A DNA stretch of 44,583 nt from Escherichia phage vB_EcoD_Over9000 (NC_073079.1); one strand, 5' to 3'; numbered from the stretch's first letter, positions 3,544 to 40,256 are shown. Notes: generated by a model from the sequence alone, not told the origin. Made by a program: numbers and translations.

Positions 3544-4630
3544 TCAATATATGGCGGATCGCATGATCCGCCGTCACATCTTCACCCAGCGCCTGAGCAA
3601 TGACCAGGCGCGGAGGGTGCTGGCTATGTGGGAGAAGTTCCGGCCCACGTTACTGGGTAAGCTGACCGAGTTACTTGATGGCAAAAAGTCCATGAATAAC
3701 AAAGCACTTACCACACTGTTAACGCAACTCGACAAGACCGTCAAAACGGAACTGCGCACCGAGTTTAAGGCGTTGGCTGAAAGCCTTCAGGAGTTCGCCG
3801 ACACCGAGGCTGATTATCTCGCCGACACATTAACGGCAGCGATCCAGCCGGTGGTCGCCGTACCTGCGGTCGAGGTGGTTGGTGTAGTGACCGGTGCGCA
3901 GATCGCAGCGACGGCTATGAAAAACCCGTTCCAGGGTAATACTATGATGCAATGGCCTGACTCACTTTCTGAGTGGACCAGGACGCAGATCGGTAACCAG
4001 GTGCGAGCGGGATTCATCCAGGGCAAGCCAACGATGGAAATTATCGCGGACGTGAGGCGCGCGCTAGGCGGTCGTAGTGCGCAAGCTATCTCGAGCGTTG
4101 TTAAGTCCGCAGTCAACCACTATGCGGCGACAGCCCGCGAATTAATGGTAAAAGCTAATGACGATATTCTCGAAGGTCGCCAATGGTTATCTACATTGGA
4201 CACGCATACTTCTCCCATGTGCCAGCTACGCGATCGCCTGTTTTATCCGGTTGATGTTACTCCCGACACCAAAGGAAAGCGCGGCGGGAAAGTGGTGGCT
4301 GGGTCACAATATGGCGCTGGTCCGGGCAAGCTGCATTATTGCTGCCGGTCGACGGAGACGTGGAAAGTTAAGGGCATGGAAGATTGGCCCAGTGGTAAGC
4401 GTCCGGCACTGAAGGCTGACGCGGGTAGATTGCTGAGTGAGCAGGTAGACGCGCAGACTGATTTCTTCTCATGGGTGCAGCGCCAGCCGCGCCATATCCT
4501 GGAAGAACTATACGGAGTGCAACGCGCCGACCAGATTATGCGCGGCGTGAAAGTGCCGAAGATGTTCACCGATTCAGGTGAACTGATGACTATCGCACAG
4601 CTTAAAAACCGGGGGTTATGGCGTGATTAA
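3527..4630 (+). CDS. head morphogenesis protein (SPP1 gp7 / Mu F-like)
   Basis: 367 aa ORF overlapping the portal 3' end; conserved position after portal. Confidence 0.55.
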   Translation: MARTINQYMADRMIRRHIFTQRLSNDQARRVLAMWEKFRPTLLGKLTELLDGKKSMNNKALTTLLTQLDKTVKTELRTEFKALAESLQEFADTEADYLADTLTAAIQPVVAVPAVEVVGVVTGAQIAATAMKNPFQGNTMMQWPDSLSEWTRTQIGNQVRAGFIQGKPTMEIIADVRRALGGRSAQAISSVVKSAVNHYAATARELMVKANDDILEGRQWLSTLDTHTSPMCQLRDRLFYPVDVTPDTKGKRGGKVVAGSQYGAGPGKLHYCCRSTETWKVKGMEDWPSGKRPALKADAGRLLSEQVDAQTDFFSWVQRQPRHILEELYGVQRADQIMRGVKVPKMFTDSGELMTIAQLKNRGLWRD

Positions 4631-4952
4631 ATATGCATCGATTGGACTGGTTATCGGTCTGGCGGTAGGATTCTGGCTAGGTGACTCCTATCGCGCTGGC
4701 GTAGTGGCGGAGGCGGCGCAAGAAGCGCAAGCCAAAGCCCAACGGCAGCAAACTAAAGTTGTGGAGCGCTCCGTGCAGGCCGAACAGGCCCGCGACGTGG
4801 AATACCGGACTATCACGAAAGAGGTTGTTAAATATGTTACGCGCCCTAACCGCCCTGATTGTAGTTTTGATGCTGAGCGCGTGCGGATCAAGCAACGCGC
4901 CGTTGATGCCGCTAACGGAGTCGGCACTGCGACCGCCGTGCAAGTTCGATAG
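4623..4952 (+). CDS. i-spanin (Rz-like, type II inner-membrane protein)
   Basis: 109 aa; N-terminal transmembrane helix IGLVIGLAVGFWL followed by Ala/Gln/Glu-rich coiled-coil region; overlapped out of frame by a lipoprotein ORF. Confidence 0.6.
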   Translation: MIKYASIGLVIGLAVGFWLGDSYRAGVVAEAAQEAQAKAQRQQTKVVERSVQAEQARDVEYRTITKEVVKYVTRPNRPDCSFDAERVRIKQRAVDAANGVGTATAVQVR

Positions 4953-5064
4953 CCCGTCCGCAGACCCCGACGAGGATTTGATGATTGACGTGAAAAATAT
5001 GGAATGCGGGGCGAAGCTAAGGGCGCAGGTGCTGGAGTTGCAGCAAATAATTAAGGGGCCGTAA
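4834..5064 (+). CDS. o-spanin (Rz1-like outer-membrane lipoprotein)
   Basis: Starts inside the Rz ORF in another frame at ATG 4834 (RBS GAGG at 4821); signal peptide with lipobox LSAC; Pro-rich mature part; about 76 aa. Confidence 0.6.
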   Translation: MLRALTALIVVLMLSACGSSNAPLMPLTESALRPPCKFDSPSADPDEDLMIDVKNMECGAKLRAQVLELQQIIKGP

Positions 5065-5078
5065 TGGCCCCTTTTTCG
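5053..5078. terminator. bidirectional intrinsic terminator
   Basis: GGGGCC-GTAAT-GGCCCC hairpin (5055-5071) followed by TTTTT; sits between convergent Rz1 (+) and the reverse-strand gene ending at 5079. Confidence 0.7.
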
Positions 5079-5843
5079 TTAGCGCGGAATACCGCAAATC
5101 TCGTTGAGAGTTTTCACATCCAGCGCCACCGCCGTGGATTTTGGCTTGTCCGGGTAAGGGATGAATTGCTCAACTTCAGGCCATGCCTTAATCAGCTTCT
5201 TATCGGTATTGTGCATGTCCAGCACACCGGTAACGGTCAACTTGAATGCGTCATACTTAGCACGCAACTCACGGCGGGCCTTGTCGTTACGGTCAAGGCG
5301 CTTGCAGAAGTCATGATCTGCCGGGAAATCCGCACGGCAGCGTGGCTTATAGATCGGCAGCGATTTTCCGTCCTCGTCCACTTCACACACTGAAGCCAAC
5401 ATAACTGTCTCGAACCCCGGAACGATATCGCCGAGATCAGGCGAGAGCTTATTCATATATTTCTCTTCCCAGTATCCGCGATGTACGCGGTATTGGCGAC
5501 CGTCACCGCTCAAGGACAAGATGCGAACATTGCCGCCTGCGTTGATTTCAAAGGTGGCGTCGTAAACGCTGCCGATACCCTTCGGGCGATCTGTGTCATA
5601 GCGATATGTTGCCTTGTTGGTGTATACGCTGACGCTGTACATCTGCGACTGGTCGTCGCGGATTGCCTTGATATGCTCGCGGAGCGCTGCGAACGTGCGA
5701 ATGCCTTCCGGCATACAGTCCAGCGTGATTGCGTACGCCAGGTCGCGAGAGTCCATCATGATTGTTTTGGCTTCGGTAGCGATTTCGTGGTCGCGCAGGA
5801 TGTTAGCCAGGATCTGATTTTTAATGTCTTTCGTCAGTCTCAT
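5079..5843 (-). CDS. hypothetical protein (reverse-strand insert in head module)
   Basis: 254 aa ORF on the opposite strand to all flanking structural genes; ends at a bidirectional terminator (5053-5078); no motif recognised by eye. Confidence 0.6.
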   Translation of the reverse strand: MRLTKDIKNQILANILRDHEIATEAKTIMMDSRDLAYAITLDCMPEGIRTFAALREHIKAIRDDQSQMYSVSVYTNKATYRYDTDRPKGIGSVYDATFEINAGGNVRILSLSGDGRQYRVHRGYWEEKYMNKLSPDLGDIVPGFETVMLASVCEVDEDGKSLPIYKPRCRADFPADHDFCKRLDRNDKARRELRAKYDAFKLTVTGVLDMHNTDKKLIKAWPEVEQFIPYPDKPKSTAVALDVKTLNEICGIPR

Positions 5844-5882
5844 TTTTATGTCCTCATTTTAGGGGCTTTCGCCCCGATTGGT

Positions 5883-6197
5883 TTAGTTGAATTTGATGTT
5901 GCCACCGGTGGAAGTTAAGCGGGCACATACAGCTTCAACGGCATCGACGCACATGAAATCGTTAAAGGCTTCGACCAGGGCGTTTATGAAAGATGCCGGA
6001 ACCAGGCCGCAAGCCGGATTATCGAATGTTGCGGAGTTGATCGCCGCTTTTGCCGCTTCAGAAGCATTCATGCTCTGGCACAGATTCAGCGCTTCCGCGT
6101 TACGCATTGCGTGAAAGGTAAAGGTATTCACTACGGTAGCTTTATTGAAACGGGCCATTGCGGCGTCTACTGGAGTTGCTACGGTCATGTTAGTCAT
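5883..6197 (-). CDS. hypothetical protein (first gene of reverse-strand insert operon)
   Basis: About 105 aa from ATG at 6197 with RBS AAGGAAAAC upstream (reverse strand); the longer ORF start at 6320 lacks an RBS; promoter-like region 6198-6300. Confidence 0.5.
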   Translation of the reverse strand: MTNMTVATPVDAAMARFNKATVVNTFTFHAMRNAEALNLCQSMNASEAAKAAINSATFDNPACGLVPASFINALVEAFNDFMCVDAVEAVCARLTSTGGNIKFN

Positions 6198-6337
6198 TTT
6201 GTTTTCCTTCATATCTCTGTTGGTGTGCAACCAACATACGCAATGCAAGCGAATTTTGCGATTATTTTTATCGCTGATAATATTAAGGCGTGAAGTCAAG
6301 CGGGTGGCCCGCTTTGCCACAATCCCAGGGGGATAGC

Positions 6338-7039
6338 ATGAAACTTACTAAAGCAGAATATGACGCGTTGCCAGAAGGTATGAAGGCGCTTTTTGTTGCC
6401 GATGGCGATGGGTATAAATCAACCTTCATGACCGCAGAAGAGGTACAGGCGGAAATCAAGGGTCTGAAAGACAATAACGCGAAGCTGGTGAGCGAGAAGA
6501 AAGCAGAAGCTGAACGCCGCGCCGAAGCCGAGCGCCTTGCGAAAGAGAAAGAGGAAGCCGCCGCGCGCAAAAATGGCGACCTCGAAGCGATCGATAAGTC
6601 CTGGAAAGATAAGTTTGCAAAACACGAAGCAGACACATCGGGAAAAATCGAAGCCTACCGCAAGCAGATCCACGATCTAACCATCGGCAGCGCTGCCAAA
6701 GACCTGGCGTCGAAGCTGTTCGGTAAGAATGCGGGTATCATGCAACGCCACGTAATGGACCGCCTGACGCTGGAAGACGGCGAAGACGGCAGCTTGAAAG
6801 TGCGTGTCTTGCAGGATGGCAAACCGTCCGCGCTGACTATGGAAGAGCTTGAAAAAGAGTTCCGTAATAACGCCGATTTTGCATCTGTTCTGGCTGGCAC
6901 GCCCGCCGGTGGCGCGCCGAGCAAACCGACGCATGTTGTCGAAGATATGAAGTCGAAAATCACTATGGGACACAGCTTCGGCATCACCGACCTGACGAAA
7001 CAGGCGGGTGAAATCATCGCTAAAATGGGCGACGAGTAA
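6338..7039 (+). CDS. head scaffolding protein (putative)
   Basis: 233 aa from ATG 6338 (RBS AGGGGGAT); strongly charged Ala/Glu/Lys/Arg-rich coiled-coil segment; immediately upstream of the major capsid gene. Confidence 0.5.
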   Translation: MKLTKAEYDALPEGMKALFVADGDGYKSTFMTAEEVQAEIKGLKDNNAKLVSEKKAEAERRAEAERLAKEKEEAAARKNGDLEAIDKSWKDKFAKHEADTSGKIEAYRKQIHDLTIGSAAKDLASKLFGKNAGIMQRHVMDRLTLEDGEDGSLKVRVLQDGKPSALTMEELEKEFRNNADFASVLAGTPAGGAPSKPTHVVEDMKSKITMGHSFGITDLTKQAGEIIAKMGDE

Positions 7040-7136
7040 GCACATTGCCCGCGAAAGCGGGCGATTTTGCGAGCGCGTAAATCTAAGGTAACATTAACGG
7101 TACTGGGCGAATGCTCACAACTCAAAGGATTTCGAT

Positions 7137-8255
7137 ATGTCATTAACAGTGTTCCAGCGTAAACTCGTTACCGCGGTTACGCAAATGATCCCCGACAACC
7201 TGAACGTGTTCAACGCTGCCGCAAATGGCGCTGTTGTTCTCGGTACTGGTGAAGTGCTGAAGGATGTTGTAGAAAAAATGTCCGTAGGCTTGATCGCCAA
7301 CCTCGTTACCGACCGTAACGCCTACGCCCCTGTCGGCACTCCGGCAACCGCGAAAGTGCTGGCGCGTATGCTGACCAACTCGGTTAACCTTTCCGCAAAA
7401 GTGGGTCCGGTAGCAATCACTAAGGCTATGATGGCTAAGATCGAAACCAACGTTAACAGCGTTGCGGCTGAGATTGCGGCACAGGCTACTCAAGCGATTA
7501 TGCTGCACTACCTGAAAGCGGGTATCGGCGCAAGTAAAGCGGCGATCGAAAGCAACGAAGCGGCAAAATACACCCAACCGGCGCGCGTTGATGGCGTTGG
7601 CGGTCGTACCTTCCCGACCCTGGCAGACTTCCCGCTGGCGGCTTCTAAGTTCGGCGATCAGGCGTCTTTGATTAAATCCTGGTTTATGGACGGCGTTACC
7701 TGGGCAAACTTCATTGCCTACCAGGCGCTACCGTCTGCCGAGCAGGTATTCGCGATCGGCGATCTGCAGGTAATGGGTGATGGCCTGGGCCGTCGTTTCA
7801 TTATCTCCGATGCCGCTGCCGATGCTATGGGTAAGGGTATCATGCTGGGTCTGGTGCCTGGCGCTGTTGCGGTTACCACCAACGGCCTTGATATGCTGGC
7901 GCAGGAGAAAGGCGGTAACGAGAACATCGAACGTTGGTGGCAGGGCGAGTTCGACTTCAACGTGGCTGTTAAAGGCTACCGTCTGAAGGCGTCCGCTCGT
8001 ACCCAGATCGAAGGTGTGCGCTCGTTCACACTGAGCGATATCACCACCTCCGCGAACTGGGAACTGGACCAGGGCCAGGTAGACAACGCACCGGCAACCG
8101 TTCAGGACGTTGGCGCTGTGGGCGCTGTGGGCGATGGTGATACTAAAGGCCGTCGTAAGACACAGGCTGCGCAGGAAGTGCCGACCCGTCACATCAAGGA
8201 AACCGCTGGCGTACTGGTTACGCTGAAGGCGACTACCGCGACTACCGCGTCTTAA
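7137..8255 (+). CDS. major capsid protein
   Basis: 372 aa; RBS AAAGGA; follows scaffold and is followed by a strong intrinsic terminator, as expected for a highly expressed structural gene. Confidence 0.75.
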   Translation: MSLTVFQRKLVTAVTQMIPDNLNVFNAAANGAVVLGTGEVLKDVVEKMSVGLIANLVTDRNAYAPVGTPATAKVLARMLTNSVNLSAKVGPVAITKAMMAKIETNVNSVAAEIAAQATQAIMLHYLKAGIGASKAAIESNEAAKYTQPARVDGVGGRTFPTLADFPLAASKFGDQASLIKSWFMDGVTWANFIAYQALPSAEQVFAIGDLQVMGDGLGRRFIISDAAADAMGKGIMLGLVPGAVAVTTNGLDMLAQEKGGNENIERWWQGEFDFNVAVKGYRLKASARTQIEGVRSFTLSDITTSANWELDQGQVDNAPATVQDVGAVGAVGDGDTKGRRKTQAAQEVPTRHIKETAGVLVTLKATTATTAS

Positions 8256-22049: not shown

Positions 22050-22075
22050 GAAAGCCCCGAAAGGGGCTTATTTGC
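22050..22075. terminator. bidirectional intrinsic terminator
   Basis: AAGCCCC-GAAA-GGGGCTT hairpin between convergent + gene (ends 22048) and the reverse-strand lipoprotein gene (ends 22068); T-rich on both flanks. Confidence 0.65.
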
Positions 22076-22286
22076 AGGTTGTGCTTTTGAAGTGGTCGAC
22101 CGACACATACTGGAAGTTGAATGGGTATCCCGCCCGTAACATTTTATGACCGCTAACGTCTGCAACCCCAAACACAGGGACGGAATACTCCACGCCACTA
22201 TTCATGTATGTCGCGTCGCAGACTTTAGTCGGCATGTTGGCACAACCCGACAAAAGAACCCCACAAATCATAATTAAAGTTTTCAT
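22068..22286 (-). CDS. outer-membrane lipoprotein, Cor/Llp-like superinfection-exclusion candidate
   Basis: 72 aa from ATG 22286 (RBS AGGAGAT on reverse strand); signal peptide MKTLIMICGVLLSGC with lipobox LSGC; reverse-strand gene wedged between tail tip and tail fiber genes. Confidence 0.55.
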   Translation of the reverse strand: MKTLIMICGVLLSGCANMPTKVCDATYMNSGVEYSVPVFGVADVSGHKMLRAGYPFNFQYVSVDHFKSTTCK

Positions 22287-22366
22287 GGTATCATCTCCTG
22301 TATTTGGTCGAGTTTTAGTATCGCACCGCTCGACCAGGATTGCAACCAATTTAAGAGGATTCAGCT

Positions 22367-24819: not shown

Positions 24820-25341
24820 TTATTTCAGCGCGCTACGTACCAGTGTTTTTTCCATGTTGCGGAAGTCTTCCGGCGTCATGAGGATTTTGGACCCGTCTTC
24901 GCCGGTGAGCACGACCATAGGCTGGACGTCCTGGTCTACGACGCCGAAATTGGCGGCTTTGACAGTCTTGCCCGCCGATGCCGAAGGATGCCACGCCCCT
25001 GCGGTGGCGATGGGCCAACCTTTAAGGCTATCGTATTGCGCTGCCGTTGTATCGATCTGAATCTCATCATGCACGGTCATGTAAGACTCGCCCAGCAGGG
25101 CGGCATACGCCACCAGATCCACGATGTTATCTTCCTGGTGCTTACGGTGCTGGCGCACCAGCTTCAGGCAGATCAGGAAGGTCCAGGCTTCTTGCTCTGT
25201 CAGGTCGCGACCGGTAAGCGCGTTAAACACGGCAGCGATTTGCTTAGCGCTGCGCTCCTCTTTCGCGTTGTCATAGCCATTCTCTTTCCCGCGCTGTTCC
25301 ATAGTGGTGGCGGCGTTTTTGCAGTATTCGTATGCTTTCAT
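24820..25341 (-). CDS. hypothetical protein (weak MazG-like helical signature)
   Basis: 173 aa; RBS AAGGAAA; N-terminal helices with EQEAW and EDNIVDLVAYAALL patterns reminiscent of MazG-type NTP pyrophosphohydrolases; speculative. Confidence 0.5.
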   Translation of the reverse strand: MKAYEYCKNAATTMEQRGKENGYDNAKEERSAKQIAAVFNALTGRDLTEQEAWTFLICLKLVRQHRKHQEDNIVDLVAYAALLGESYMTVHDEIQIDTTAAQYDSLKGWPIATAGAWHPSASAGKTVKAANFGVVDQDVQPMVVLTGEDGSKILMTPEDFRNMEKTLVRSALK

Positions 25342-25403
25342 TATGTTTTCCTTTTTAGCGTGGGGCCATATTGCCCCGACGCGTTAACTATAGTGCAACC
25401 AAC

Positions 25404-26095: not shown

Positions 26096-26561
26096 GTAGC
26101 TCACTCTCGCTCATTATTTCAATTTGTGCGCTGCCGCATGGCGGCGCTTCGTCAAATATTATCAATTGCTGGCACTTGTTATTGCTCGGCCCGACTTCAC
26201 CGGTTACAGCATGTATGAATCGGATCCGCCAGTCCAGAAGAATTATCAGGTTTGCAGTCTTCCTGGCCAGCTTCGCCCACTTCGTCGACGTGTCCTGATT
26301 CAGTAGCATGACCGTCCGGCGTCCGTGCGCTGCGCACTCTACCCACGGCAGCGGATCGGAATACGGCGGATTGCACCACTTCCACCCTTTCAACTCGGAC
26401 CAGTCCACATCAAGCGCGCTGTGTTCCGCCGTGAAGTAACGTGGTAGCAGATGATTGGTGTCGCTTGCCGCCATATCGTAACGGAATCGGTATTTCCGAC
26501 GAAGCGGTTTAAATAAAGCTGGCGGCGTGCGCCAGCTATCTTTTTGCTCATTCTCCGTCAT
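26076..26561 (-). CDS. DNA N6-adenine methyltransferase (phage Dam family)
   Basis: 161 aa; WRTPP...DMAAS...WCNPPYSD matches the phage T1-type Dam family signature including the catalytic NPPY motif. Confidence 0.85.
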   Translation of the reverse strand: MTENEQKDSWRTPPALFKPLRRKYRFRYDMAASDTNHLLPRYFTAEHSALDVDWSELKGWKWCNPPYSDPLPWVECAAHGRRTVMLLNQDTSTKWAKLARKTANLIILLDWRIRFIHAVTGEVGPSNNKCQQLIIFDEAPPCGSAQIEIMSESELHEYLNR

Positions 26562-27006
26562 AGTCGGGATCTATCGCATACAGGGCGGTTTTCTTGCCAC
26601 TGGATAGCACGCGTTGGACTCGGGATAGCTCCGCCCTACTGAGCGGTCGGCTATCGGAATAGTAGCTGCCGTTTGCACGCCACGCTATACGCACCAGTCC
26701 TTTCCGCGGGATCGAAGACTGGCTGCCCTTCGGACGGACGTACTCCTCGGCCAGTTTGCAATGCTCGCGCAGACCTTCGGCAGTGATGCGGTTTAGCGCG
26801 ACGGTGGTTGTGTACCCGGTGCGCTGCATAATACCCATCAACTCATACAGCAGTTCGAAGCGCTCCTCTAACTCCTTGCGCGCCTTCTCCTCGCCTTCAT
26901 AGCTCGCCAGGTAGGTGTCCGCCAGCGCGTTCGCCCGTTCGACCTGTTCGCGGGCTTCGAGGCATTGCGCGGCCCAGTAATTTTTCTCTTCTTGTAAAAT
27001 TTTCAT
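26548..27006 (-). CDS. hypothetical protein (coiled-coil N-terminus)
   Basis: 152 aa; Glu/Lys/Ala-rich helical N-terminal half; promoter-like ATTGGTTGCAT copies upstream (27056-27085). Confidence 0.5.
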   Translation of the reverse strand: MKILQEEKNYWAAQCLEAREQVERANALADTYLASYEGEEKARKELEERFELLYELMGIMQRTGYTTTVALNRITAEGLREHCKLAEEYVRPKGSQSSIPRKGLVRIAWRANGSYYSDSRPLSRAELSRVQRVLSSGKKTALYAIDPDYDGE

Positions 27007-36019: not shown

Positions 36020-36535
36020 TTAATCTTCCAGTTCGAAATAGGTTTCGACGATTTCTTTTAGCTCTTTGTGGAAGTCTTCGACGTCGTCATCTTCCAGCTT
36101 GGCGATTGATTTGATCTCGAACGATTCCAGCAGGTCGTCGAATTCGTCGTTCGCATCGTCGTCATCGCCACCGGCGATAATCGCGGCATACTGTTTGATT
36201 TCGTCGCGCATCTCTGCCAGCGGGTCGGCATCTTTCTTACCTTTGCCTTTCGCCGGTGCTTTCTTAGACTTAGCCGGTTTTTCGTCTTCGGCATCGTCGT
36301 CGTCATCTTCTACGACTTCTTTTTTAGCCTTACCTTTCGCCGGGGCTTTTTTAGATTTAGCCGGTTTTTCGTCTTCGGCGTCATCGTCGTCATCTTCGAC
36401 AACTTCTTTTTTGGCCTTAGACGGCTTCTTGTCTTCCTGTTTACCAACGGCAGCGCCAACGGTTTCATAATGCTTTGCAATGGTTTCCAGTGCTACTACG
36501 CCGCGAGTGATCAGGTTTACGATTTGCTCAAACAT
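36020..36535 (-). CDS. highly acidic protein with tandem repeats (DNA-mimic / anti-restriction candidate)
   Basis: 171 aa from ATG 36535 (RBS GGAG); two 28-aa repeats KKEVVEDDDDDAEDEKPAKSKKAPAKGK; acidic C-terminus; own terminator 35982-36011; first gene of the reverse block. Confidence 0.55.
   Translation of the reverse strand: MFEQIVNLITRGVVALETIAKHYETVGAAVGKQEDKKPSKAKKEVVEDDDDDAEDEKPAKSKKAPAKGKAKKEVVEDDDDDAEDEKPAKSKKAPAKGKGKKDADPLAEMRDEIKQYAAIIAGGDDDDANDEFDDLLESFEIKSIAKLEDDDVEDFHKELKEIVETYFELED
36248..36415. repeat. 84-bp tandem repeat (2 copies) within the acidic-protein gene
   Basis: Near-identical units ...CTTTCGCCGG(T/G)GCTTT(C/T)TTAGA(C/T)TTAGCCGGTTTTTCGTCTTCGGC(A/G)TC(G/A)TCGTCGTCATCTTC... 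Confidence 0.7.
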
Positions 36536-36771
36536 GGTATATCTCCGATTGGTTAAGTTTAGGTGTCGGCAGTTAACTTCGTCGGTGGCCTTAACATATT
36601 GCCAGGTTACGCGTTCTCCCGTTCGGGTAGTGGACCTGGTTATATAATCACGGTTGGGAATCCTGACACTTCGATCCGGCCCCTGCGTTGCCCCTCTCCA
36701 GTTTGCGTCCTGCATCCTGTCGACGGGGTGAATATTAGATTGGTTGCATGTGGGGTGTCAACAACTAATTT

Positions 36772-39515: not shown

Positions 39516-39534
39516 CGGCGACCGATGACGACCT

Positions 39535-39654
39535 GAAAGATTAAATTTTGCGCGCATTGGTTGCCGATATGGGAATCCCCATATCGCTAAAAGATTAAAT
39601 TTTGCGCGCATTGGTTGCCATTTTGAGTGTTTTTAGTCGGTCGCATTGGTTGCC
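39535..39654. repeat. direct repeats with intervening inverted repeat (ori-like region downstream of primase/helicase)
   Basis: 31-bp direct repeat (G/A)AAAGATTAAATTTTGCGCGCATTGGTTGCC at 39535-39565 and 39589-39619, partial third copy CGCATTGGTTGCC at 39642-39654; hairpin GATATGGG-AATC-CCCATATC between; AT-rich stretch follows. Confidence 0.7.
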
Positions 39655-39689
39655 GTGTAGTGTAAATATAATGAATAGTTATGCAGTTT

Positions 39690-39870
39690 TATTGCATAAA
39701 GTAAGCGGGACAAAAAGCGGGACAAACTTAGGGCGGGACAAAGCGGGACAGCACCCCCGTCCCGCCCCGGATGACGCGGCTTCCAGAGGAGCGGGACAGC
39801 GGGACAGCACCCCAGTCTTTCAGACTAGACGGGGGTCAGTGGCCCCCCTCGTCTGAGACTGAATAAAATC
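39690..39870. repeat. iteron cluster (GCGGGACA boxes) plus conserved hairpin element, copy B
   Basis: About 190 bp roughly 85-90 percent identical (by eye) to 11975-12145, including the same ~50-bp hairpin element with only loop changes (TCAACGG vs TCAGTGG). Confidence 0.8.
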
Positions 39871-40021
39871 CGGGATTGCAAAATACACGGCAGCATGACG
39901 CGAAGTGCGGTCGCGGATGAACTAGGCAACCAATGCGAGTTACATTATGCTGAGTGAAAAATGCGGTTTGCAGTCACAGCTGATAGCGATCAACTTTTTC
40001 ATGCGCGTGATTAATATTGGT

Positions 40022-40077: not shown

Positions 40078-40256
40078 TGAAAACCGAAATGGTTAATAAG
40101 CGCGAAATCAAGATCGGCGATACGGTAGTACACAACGGGGAGCTTCGCACTGTGTGCAAGCGAGCGTTTAGCATCGATGAATTTATGGGCCTGCTACTTT
40201 GGGGCGACAGCTATCGTTTAGGGCATAAACTGGTTGAGAGGGTTACGGAACTATGA
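40078..40256 (+). CDS. small hypothetical protein
   Basis: 59 aa from ATG 40078 with strong RBS AGGAGGG and a sigma70-like promoter (40022-40050). Confidence 0.5.

Follow-up and report, generated by a model that had tools for sequence, protein, structure and literature searches.

The genome of Escherichia phage vB_EcoD_Over9000 (NC_073079.1) was analysed as one stretch of 44,583 nucleotides, called the window here, and the subject of this report is an island of two reverse-strand genes that lies among its head genes. The larger gene, nmad5 (5079–5843, − strand), encodes 254 amino acids from an ATG start. The smaller (5883–6197, − strand) encodes an acidic orphan protein of 104 amino acids, assigned to phrog_24635, with an ATG start after an AAGGA ribosome-binding site. 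A spacer between the two genes (5844–5882, − strand) carries a hairpin and the ribosome-binding site of nmad5. The island is bounded by a divergent control region that faces in both directions (6198–6337), seen from its conservation across the genus, and by a terminator-like hairpin that can serve both strands (5053–5073), seen from scanning, folding and conservation. On the forward strand, PHROG matches identify the Rz/Rz1 spanin pair on one side (4623–4952, with an embedded open reading frame (ORF) ending at 5064) and the scaffold gene on the other (6338–7039). PHROG and Pfam matches together give the order terminase, portal, head morphogenesis, spanins, the two reverse ORFs, scaffold and major capsid protein, and the annotated genome of phage EC115 is collinear with this order. 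It is likely that the island is a conserved leftward unit, antisense within the head operon and made of a control region, a slot with exchangeable contents, nmad5 and a terminator; that this unit is expressed early; that Nmad5 is a binding protein and not an enzyme; and that the 104 amino acid gene moves independently.

Judged by its sequence the window is a Dhillonvirus coliphage genome; its region 4600–7200 matched 157 phage records at 80–99% nucleotide identity, nearly all of them Escherichia or Shigella Dhillonvirus. The larger product belongs to Pfam family PF18757 (nucleotide modification associated domain 5), which it matches with E=1.3e-60 and 205.4 bits against a cut-off of 27, residues 1–253 covering model positions 1–206 of 206. 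An earlier reading of the window (the sequence-only reading) had recognised no motif in either product, which does not hold for Nmad5. The same reading had left the functions open. For nmad5 there is already a published study that ties it to sensing by the Tmn defence. The comparison makes the window gene the orthologue of the published nmad5 of SM_A8 and SM_S22: slot, strand and length are the same, the proteins are 87–88% identical, K216 is invariant in a three-way alignment, and there is no difference in kind. SM_A8 also has the identical two-gene arrangement, with a 104 amino acid gene upstream of nmad5. Yamashita et al. 2025 (PMC11846954), who label nmad5 a DNA modification enzyme, have shown that the substitution K216E in the SM_A8 gene leads to escape from Tmn, and they report the substitution in SM_S22 as K296E. 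Reverting the escape substitution restores Tmn sensitivity, a deletion of nmad5 is viable but does not give Tmn escape, and the gene could not be cloned, apparently due to toxicity (PMC11846954).

The two residue numbers can be reconciled. In the SM_S22 record (PP627283), the nmad5 coding sequence is deposited at 1006–2010 with a length of 334 amino acids, which is 80 codons too long and runs through the promoter region; the extension overlaps a scaffold coding sequence that is itself over-extended to the same degree. The 334 amino acid form is evidently an annotation artefact, the real protein having 254 amino acids. Because the 80 extra residues are an artefact, K296 of SM_S22 is the same residue as K216.

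Both ORFs lie where the sequence-only reading had placed them, between the spanin pair and the scaffold gene, and by their substitution patterns both are real genes under purifying selection. For nmad5, the ratio of nonsynonymous to synonymous substitution rates (dN/dS) against ten Dhillonvirus orthologues is 0.06–0.15, with dS up to 0.77. For the 104 amino acid gene it is 0.08–0.10 in three of four Dhillonvirus comparisons; the fourth, with the near-identical BMA1, gives 0.30 from two substitutions only. nmad5 is found in the same slot and on the same strand at all Dhillonvirus loci recovered, even where protein identity falls to 65% or 43%, and its GC content of 0.53 and its GC content at third codon positions (GC3) of 0.65 are typical of the genome (GC 0.546, backbone GC3 about 0.62–0.69). 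The proposal that the genes are an insert into an otherwise uninterrupted head module fails for nmad5, because this gene has the same position and strand in every Dhillonvirus examined; conserved as it is there, it is not a structural gene. The 104 amino acid gene has a GC content of 0.50 and a GC3 of 0.54, the latter lower than in its neighbours. By tblastn, it occurs in about 59 records at at least 90% identity, compared with about 148 records that carry a Dhillonvirus-type nmad5. The accessory (moron) character that had been suggested for the pair therefore belongs to the 104 amino acid gene, whose presence varies, and not to nmad5, which is fixed in the genus. It is worth noting that record MG065648.1, a 35 kb entry named Campylobacter phage A144, contains a Dhillonvirus Nmad5 at 93% identity, and that the host label or the assembly of this record looks doubtful.

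Nmad5 proteins are widespread. A profile search (E≤1e-3) returned 842 clusters at 50% identity, most members being about 200 amino acids long; pattern scans from smaller alignments added little diversity. Based on an alignment of 102 sequences, AlphaFold gave a confident model of the window protein (predicted local distance difference test score, pLDDT, 87.7; predicted template modelling score, pTM, 0.81), while an earlier run with nine sequences had been poor (pLDDT 57.9). The model has an N-terminal segment of three helices, a beta-rich middle that carries a Dhillonvirus-specific insertion of about 50 residues, a long helix, and a C-terminal tail on a linker of lower confidence. Conserved residues are R2, G104, T213, K216, L217, W221, P222, E223, P229, L246, N247, G251 and P253; all of these except G104 and P229 are present with frequencies of 0.64–1.00 across 102 diverse members. 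They do not form a catalytic-type set, and the model has no recognisable catalytic fold. A fold search in BFVD matched only other Nmad5 proteins, and sequence searches of NCBIfam, PADLOC and the PDB gave no significant match (best PDB hit E=0.095). The window protein has the N-terminal R-L-T, the internal T213-x-x-K216-L-x-x-x-W-P-E and the C-terminal L-N-x-x-C-G-I-P that are signatures of the family, and the two termini (MRLT..., ...LNxxCG[IL]P) are much better conserved than the body. K216, the site of Tmn escape, falls within the most conserved patch of the protein.

The neighbourhoods of Nmad5 homologues point to the early and replication genes of phages. Guernseyvirinae, for example Klebsiella phage VLCpiS11a, encode Nmad5 in the second ORF of an operon with a DUF2800 exonuclease, a Gp2.5-like single-stranded DNA-binding protein (SSB), PolA and SNF2, divergent from the primase-helicase. 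The window has a DUF2800 exonuclease, SSB, PolA and primase-helicase that are 48–66% identical to these, with SNF2 outside that locus and no nmad5 there. In HK542 and an Stx1 phage, Nmad5 comes first after N in the pL operon, and the genes downstream of it are cIII, kil, gam, bet, exo or erf, and abc2. The proteins HK542 gp33 and SH2026Stx1 gp17 are full-length Nmad5 (E=3e-72), as is the window protein, and their genes are early, of non-essential type and placed beside recombination and host-takeover genes; they differ in that they come from temperate phages, run in the same direction as their operon, have about 207 amino acids and lack the beta-rich insertion. In a Rac-like prophage Nmad5 is upstream of RecT and YqaJ, and in Vibrio phage Athena1 it adjoins replication protein O and RecE/RecT. 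Some distant homologues adjoin capsid or lysis genes. Only in the Yuavirus phages M6 and SN1 is Nmad5 found among thymidine-hypermodification genes (PMC9476957). Among 96 neighbouring ORFs from 13 other loci, a Pfam census counted two ordinary DNA methyltransferases (C-5 cytosine and MT-A70) and no hypermodification enzymes such as aGPT-Pplase, hydroxymethylase, kinase or glycosyltransferase.

The early or replication neighbourhoods of the homologues, and a model whose fold is not enzyme-like, leave the label "DNA modification enzyme" without support for Nmad5. It is unlikely that Nmad5 is a base-modification enzyme, or an obligatory subunit of one, and that Tmn senses the modified DNA. This would agree with the name of the Pfam family, with what the 2025 Tmn paper (PMC11846954) assumes, and with the M6 and SN1 loci, where nmad5 is grouped with the aGPT-Pplase, kinase, radical-SAM and PLP genes of a thymidine hypermodification pathway (PMC9476957), but the M6 protein, although of the same Pfam family (E=2e-33) and with the same C-terminal motif, is shorter (186 amino acids) and lies among aGPT-Pplase and thymidylate-synthase-like genes that the window does not have. 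In the window, the neighbours of nmad5 are the spanins, the orphan gene and the scaffold gene, with no hypermodification gene beside it, and DNA-modifying genes are limited to two adenine-methyltransferase-like ORFs at a distance of about 20 kb. The positions in HK542, the Stx phages and Guernseyvirinae, the census, and the missing enzyme fold and catalytic residues all speak against an enzyme as well. Dhillonviruses are sensitive to restriction-modification systems (PMC11990801), and the deletion of nmad5 leaves Tmn sensitivity unchanged (PMC11846954), which is hard to reconcile with the sensing of a modification.

Between the control region and nmad5 there is a slot whose content changes from phage to phage. 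The 104 amino acid gene fills it in the window, at three other loci (L007, L009 and L013) and in SM_A8. Other occupants are a DnaN-like gene of 172 amino acids (L008), a gene of 135 amino acids (L010, L011) and one of 53 amino acids (L012), and the slot is empty, with a length of 149 bp, in L014–L017, L005 and SM_S22. The 5′ leader is common to all cargo types. The 3′ junction, AACTAAACCAAnCGGGGCGAAAGCCCC, follows three of the cargo types (not the 53 amino acid gene of L012) and is missing from empty slots; in the window this junction is the spacer, with a GGGGC-GAAA-GCCCC hairpin at 5862–5875 and the ribosome-binding site GAGGAC of nmad5 at 5850–5855. At L008, the last 20 nucleotides of the 104 amino acid gene remain after the DnaN-like gene, so it appears that cargo is exchanged by recombination at the conserved flanks. 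On this comparison the 104 amino acid gene is accessory and optional within the genus. The cargo appears to have no promoter of its own and sits between the putative resident promoter and the resident gene nmad5.

The DnaN-like protein has about 172 amino acids and a match to Pfam DNA_pol3_beta_2 that is below threshold. It is present in 285 phage records, from small siphoviruses, and is often annotated as DNA polymerase III beta. Its gene (L008 7401–7919; L004 5251–5763; L091 3501–4022; L092 3501–4016) is upstream of nmad5 in L008, which is of the Shigella phage EP23 type, and downstream of it in the divergent L004, where it is 83% identical. A functional pairing of this gene with nmad5 is conceivable, but most Dhillonviruses do not have it. 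In Guernseyvirinae (fBC-Eco01 and PSDA-2), a gene of this same family stands alone and antisense within the head module; in PSDA-2 its place is exactly the one from the Rz spanin to the gene in the position of the scaffold. The setting resembles that of the island: a lone reverse-strand gene with spanin or portal genes on one side, scaffold or head genes on the other, and a bidirectional terminator at its flank. The difference is that in Guernseyvirinae the occupant of the head module is clamp-like and Nmad5 is in the replication operon instead. Since Guernseyvirinae also have one, an antisense slot with a replication-related gene in the head module would be an old shared feature with differing occupants.

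The protein encoded by the cargo gene of the window matches phrog_24635, of unknown function, with E=4e-67 and has no match in Pfam, NCBIfam, PADLOC or the PDB. PADLOC profiles likewise did not match Nmad5 or two of the alternative cargo proteins. The family is narrow, with 17 clusters at at least 57% identity, and the motif FDNPACGLVP is invariant in it. Homologues also occur without nmad5, in a 156 kb T4-like contig, in 150 kb coliphages and in a Pantoea myovirus, as well as after a DNA ligase gene on a 47 kb contig and after a primase gene beside a superinfection-immunity gene. As a separate observation, on a 47 kb phage contig (L089 1–5309) the homologue stands beside PurZ-like (adenylosuccinate-synthetase-like), HD phosphohydrolase and Dam-type methyltransferase genes, a set that is reminiscent of phages with diaminopurine (Z) genomes.

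With these distributions, there is very little room for the view that the two genes form a single moron or anti-defence cassette, gained recently and mobile as a whole. They do have a control region and a terminator in common, and the arrangement in SM_A8 is the same. But many Dhillonviruses have nmad5 without the small gene, T4-like, Pantoea and other phages have the small gene without nmad5, and nmad5 itself has the base composition of the genome and has stayed in place while diverging with the genus to 43–65% identity. On the genomes compared, movement as a single unit is already refuted by the separability of the genes.

The sequence-only reading had given the two genes their own upstream region, and this is indeed a conserved one: the 140 bp at 6198–6337 are near-invariant across 12 loci. 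In the leftward direction there is TCGCAA (6256–6261, − strand), a 17-nucleotide spacer and TATGTT (6233–6238), followed by the motif TTGGTTGCA (6226–6234, − strand), which here lies inside an inverted repeat GTTGGT..ACCAAC (6219–6235). In the rightward direction there are promoter-like elements, TTGCGA-16-TAATAT, at 6256–6283. These hexamer assignments are putative and score below the threshold of a consensus scan; a sigma-70 scan of 4500–7200 found no promoter at threshold. We infer the leftward promoter of the island from the conservation together with the recurrence of the motif. A candidate for a strong leftward promoter, TTGACT near 6290, was rejected, as this hexamer is not conserved in the genus and has no suitably spaced −10 element. 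Just downstream of the rightward elements, in the scaffold leader, there is also a conserved GCGGG-TGG-CCCGC hairpin (6300–6312) followed by TTTGCC, which may affect the transcript of the scaffold and capsid genes, either by attenuation or through RNA stability.

The motif TTGGTTGCA occurs in 10 exact copies in the window, where 0.5 would be expected (6226, 22341, 25394, 27061, 27078, 33832, 36740, 40017, 40048 and 40776). Seven of the 10 are intergenic, co-oriented with and 13–190 nucleotides upstream of the start codons of non-structural genes, namely the island, cor, the ORFs 24820–25341 and 26548–27006, the primase-helicase operon and a small ORF near 40078; the blocks served include one with methyltransferase and polynucleotide kinase genes. 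No copy is upstream of a structural (late) gene in the window, and EC115 has copies at the same places. The context of the motif in the control region, TAnnTT-GGTTGCA, is one that otherwise marks the promoters of non-structural genes, and the sequence upstream of the copy at 25394, GCAAAATTCACTTGCAACCACTAGG-TTGGTTGCA, is much like its counterpart in the island, GCAAAATTCGCTTGCATTGCGTATG-TTGGTTGCA. Because the other copies mark non-structural promoters, the island looks wired as an early unit. A 14 bp unit, GTATRTTGGTTGCA (6226–6239), is present once in the window and as two tandem copies in BMA1, EC115 and most other Dhillonviruses. The idea that this 14 bp difference destroys the promoter was rejected, as the single-copy arrangement equals that upstream of ORF 24820–25341.

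The cor gene is itself of interest, since the two island genes had been thought to be the only reverse-strand genes from terminase to tail fibre. A third is present: a cor-like lipoprotein gene (22068–22286, − strand; 72 amino acids, MKTLIMICGVLLSGC...) between tail genes and ahead of the last tail-fibre gene. The annotation of EC115 calls it superinfection exclusion, and it has TTGGTTGCA upstream of it at 22341–22349. The shared motif suggests that both the island and cor are non-structural units that run antisense among the late genes and are under common control with the DNA-metabolism genes.

At the other end of the island the proposed bidirectional terminator also stands up. The hairpin at 5053–5073 (AAGGGGCC-GTAAT-GGCCCCTT, with the stop codon of Rz1 in the loop) is common to the convergent spanin operon on the forward strand and the nmad5 unit on the reverse strand. 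It folds at −17.7 and −18.8 kcal/mol, scores as terminator-like on both strands, and is kept in 11 Dhillonvirus loci with compensatory GGGGCC/GGGGGCC stem variants. A role of the pair in capsid assembly or lysis, which its position between spanins and scaffold and the few distant homologues beside capsid or lysis genes might suggest, is highly improbable given the opposite strand, the non-structural promoter motif, the lack of similarity of either protein to structural families, the early or replication regions in which most homologues lie, and the viable nmad5 deletion mutant (PMC11846954).

Taken together, the island would be switched on with the early and DNA-metabolism genes and not with the late genes that surround it. 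Nmad5 would be a non-enzymatic early accessory protein that binds a partner in the sphere of replication and recombination or of host takeover, with the T-x-x-K-L-x-x-x-W-P-E patch and the C-terminal LNxxCG[IL]P tail as the likely contact surfaces. Tmn may then monitor this interaction surface, by analogy with RIIB of phage T2, an early replisome-linked protein that Tmn senses by direct binding (PMC13001434). The 104 amino acid gene would be an independently mobile early accessory gene, its role most likely anti-defence or host modulation.

Several points weigh against this account. The role in replication or recombination is read from gene neighbourhood only, and the census of Nmad5 loci shows no single constant partner. 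Phages from which nmad5 has been deleted are still restricted by Tmn (PMC11846954), and Nmad5 is therefore not simply the trigger. In M6 and SN1 the gene is inside a thymidine-hypermodification cluster (PMC9476957), and the absence of a known fold in the model may be compatible with a new kind of enzyme. The proposed leftward promoter agrees with the consensus at about 7 of 12 positions, and the scan found none. Finally, related copies of TTGGTTGCA are found in iteron-like arrays at 39.5–39.9 kb, so the motif may bind a phage protein and not RNA polymerase alone, and it could be an operator or a replication-protein site instead of a promoter element.

A bolder version, which we regard as possible but doubtful, is that Nmad5 is misnamed and that its roughly 840 clusters at 50% identity represent a widespread early adaptor. 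This adaptor would dock on a component of the replisome, the clamp or the recombination machinery through the near-invariant LNxxCG[IL]P tail and the T-x-x-K-L-x-x-x-W-P-E patch. Tmn would guard that docking as it does with RIIB, and slots such as the one described here would collect replication and counter-defence cargo. The cargo, including that of the equivalent antisense slot of Guernseyvirinae, does include a half-size DnaN-like clamp.

To return to the proposed binding protein and its exchangeable neighbour, the preferred account has parallels among known systems. T2 RIIB, the Tmn trigger (PMC13001434), is early, non-essential and replisome-linked, a description that Nmad5 would share, and in both a single substitution abolishes Tmn restriction. 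The two differ in that nonsense mutations in RIIB allow escape and RIIB by itself is enough to activate Tmn, whereas a deletion of nmad5 gives no escape. Phage morons and accessory hot spots resemble the slot in having conserved flanks and alternative small genes, and perhaps in base composition, the cargo here having a GC3 below that of the backbone; in the window, however, the cargo appears to have no promoter of its own and is placed before nmad5, a resident core gene of the genus.

Part of this is already known: nmad5 has been named and mutated in a published study, and the locus is present in about 150 deposited Dhillonvirus genomes. What is new is the anatomy of the cargo slot, the regulatory motif, the corrected annotation of SM_S22 and the arguments against calling Nmad5 an enzyme. 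The enzyme label rests on the family name only, and the gene neighbourhoods and the predicted fold argue against it, so that Tmn escape is better read as the sensing of a protein than as the sensing of modified DNA. The slot before nmad5 is a defined site with conserved flanks at which small, presumably early, genes are exchanged, which makes it convenient for finding counter-defence genes and well suited to insertions in phage engineering. With the motif TTGGTTGCA, the non-structural regulon of Dhillonvirus can be mapped in a way open to testing.

Some minor observations concern the rest of the window. Scans for Rfam families and tRNAs in it were empty. The ORF that heads the replication operon (36020–36715, − strand, 231 amino acids) was considered as a hidden Nmad5 paralogue and rejected, with an hhalign probability of 0.1%. 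The C-terminus of its product weakly matches the ORF before Nmad5 in VLCpiS11a (L054 5462–5953; 44% over 32 amino acids), and this match fits a move of nmad5 out of the replication operon and into the head-module slot in Dhillonvirus. The iteron-like repeats at 39530–39950, which lie downstream of the primase-helicase gene, consist of four copies of CGCATTGGTTGCC, one of them inverted, and about six of GCGGGAC; replication may start in this region, or it may serve as a hub of regulation.

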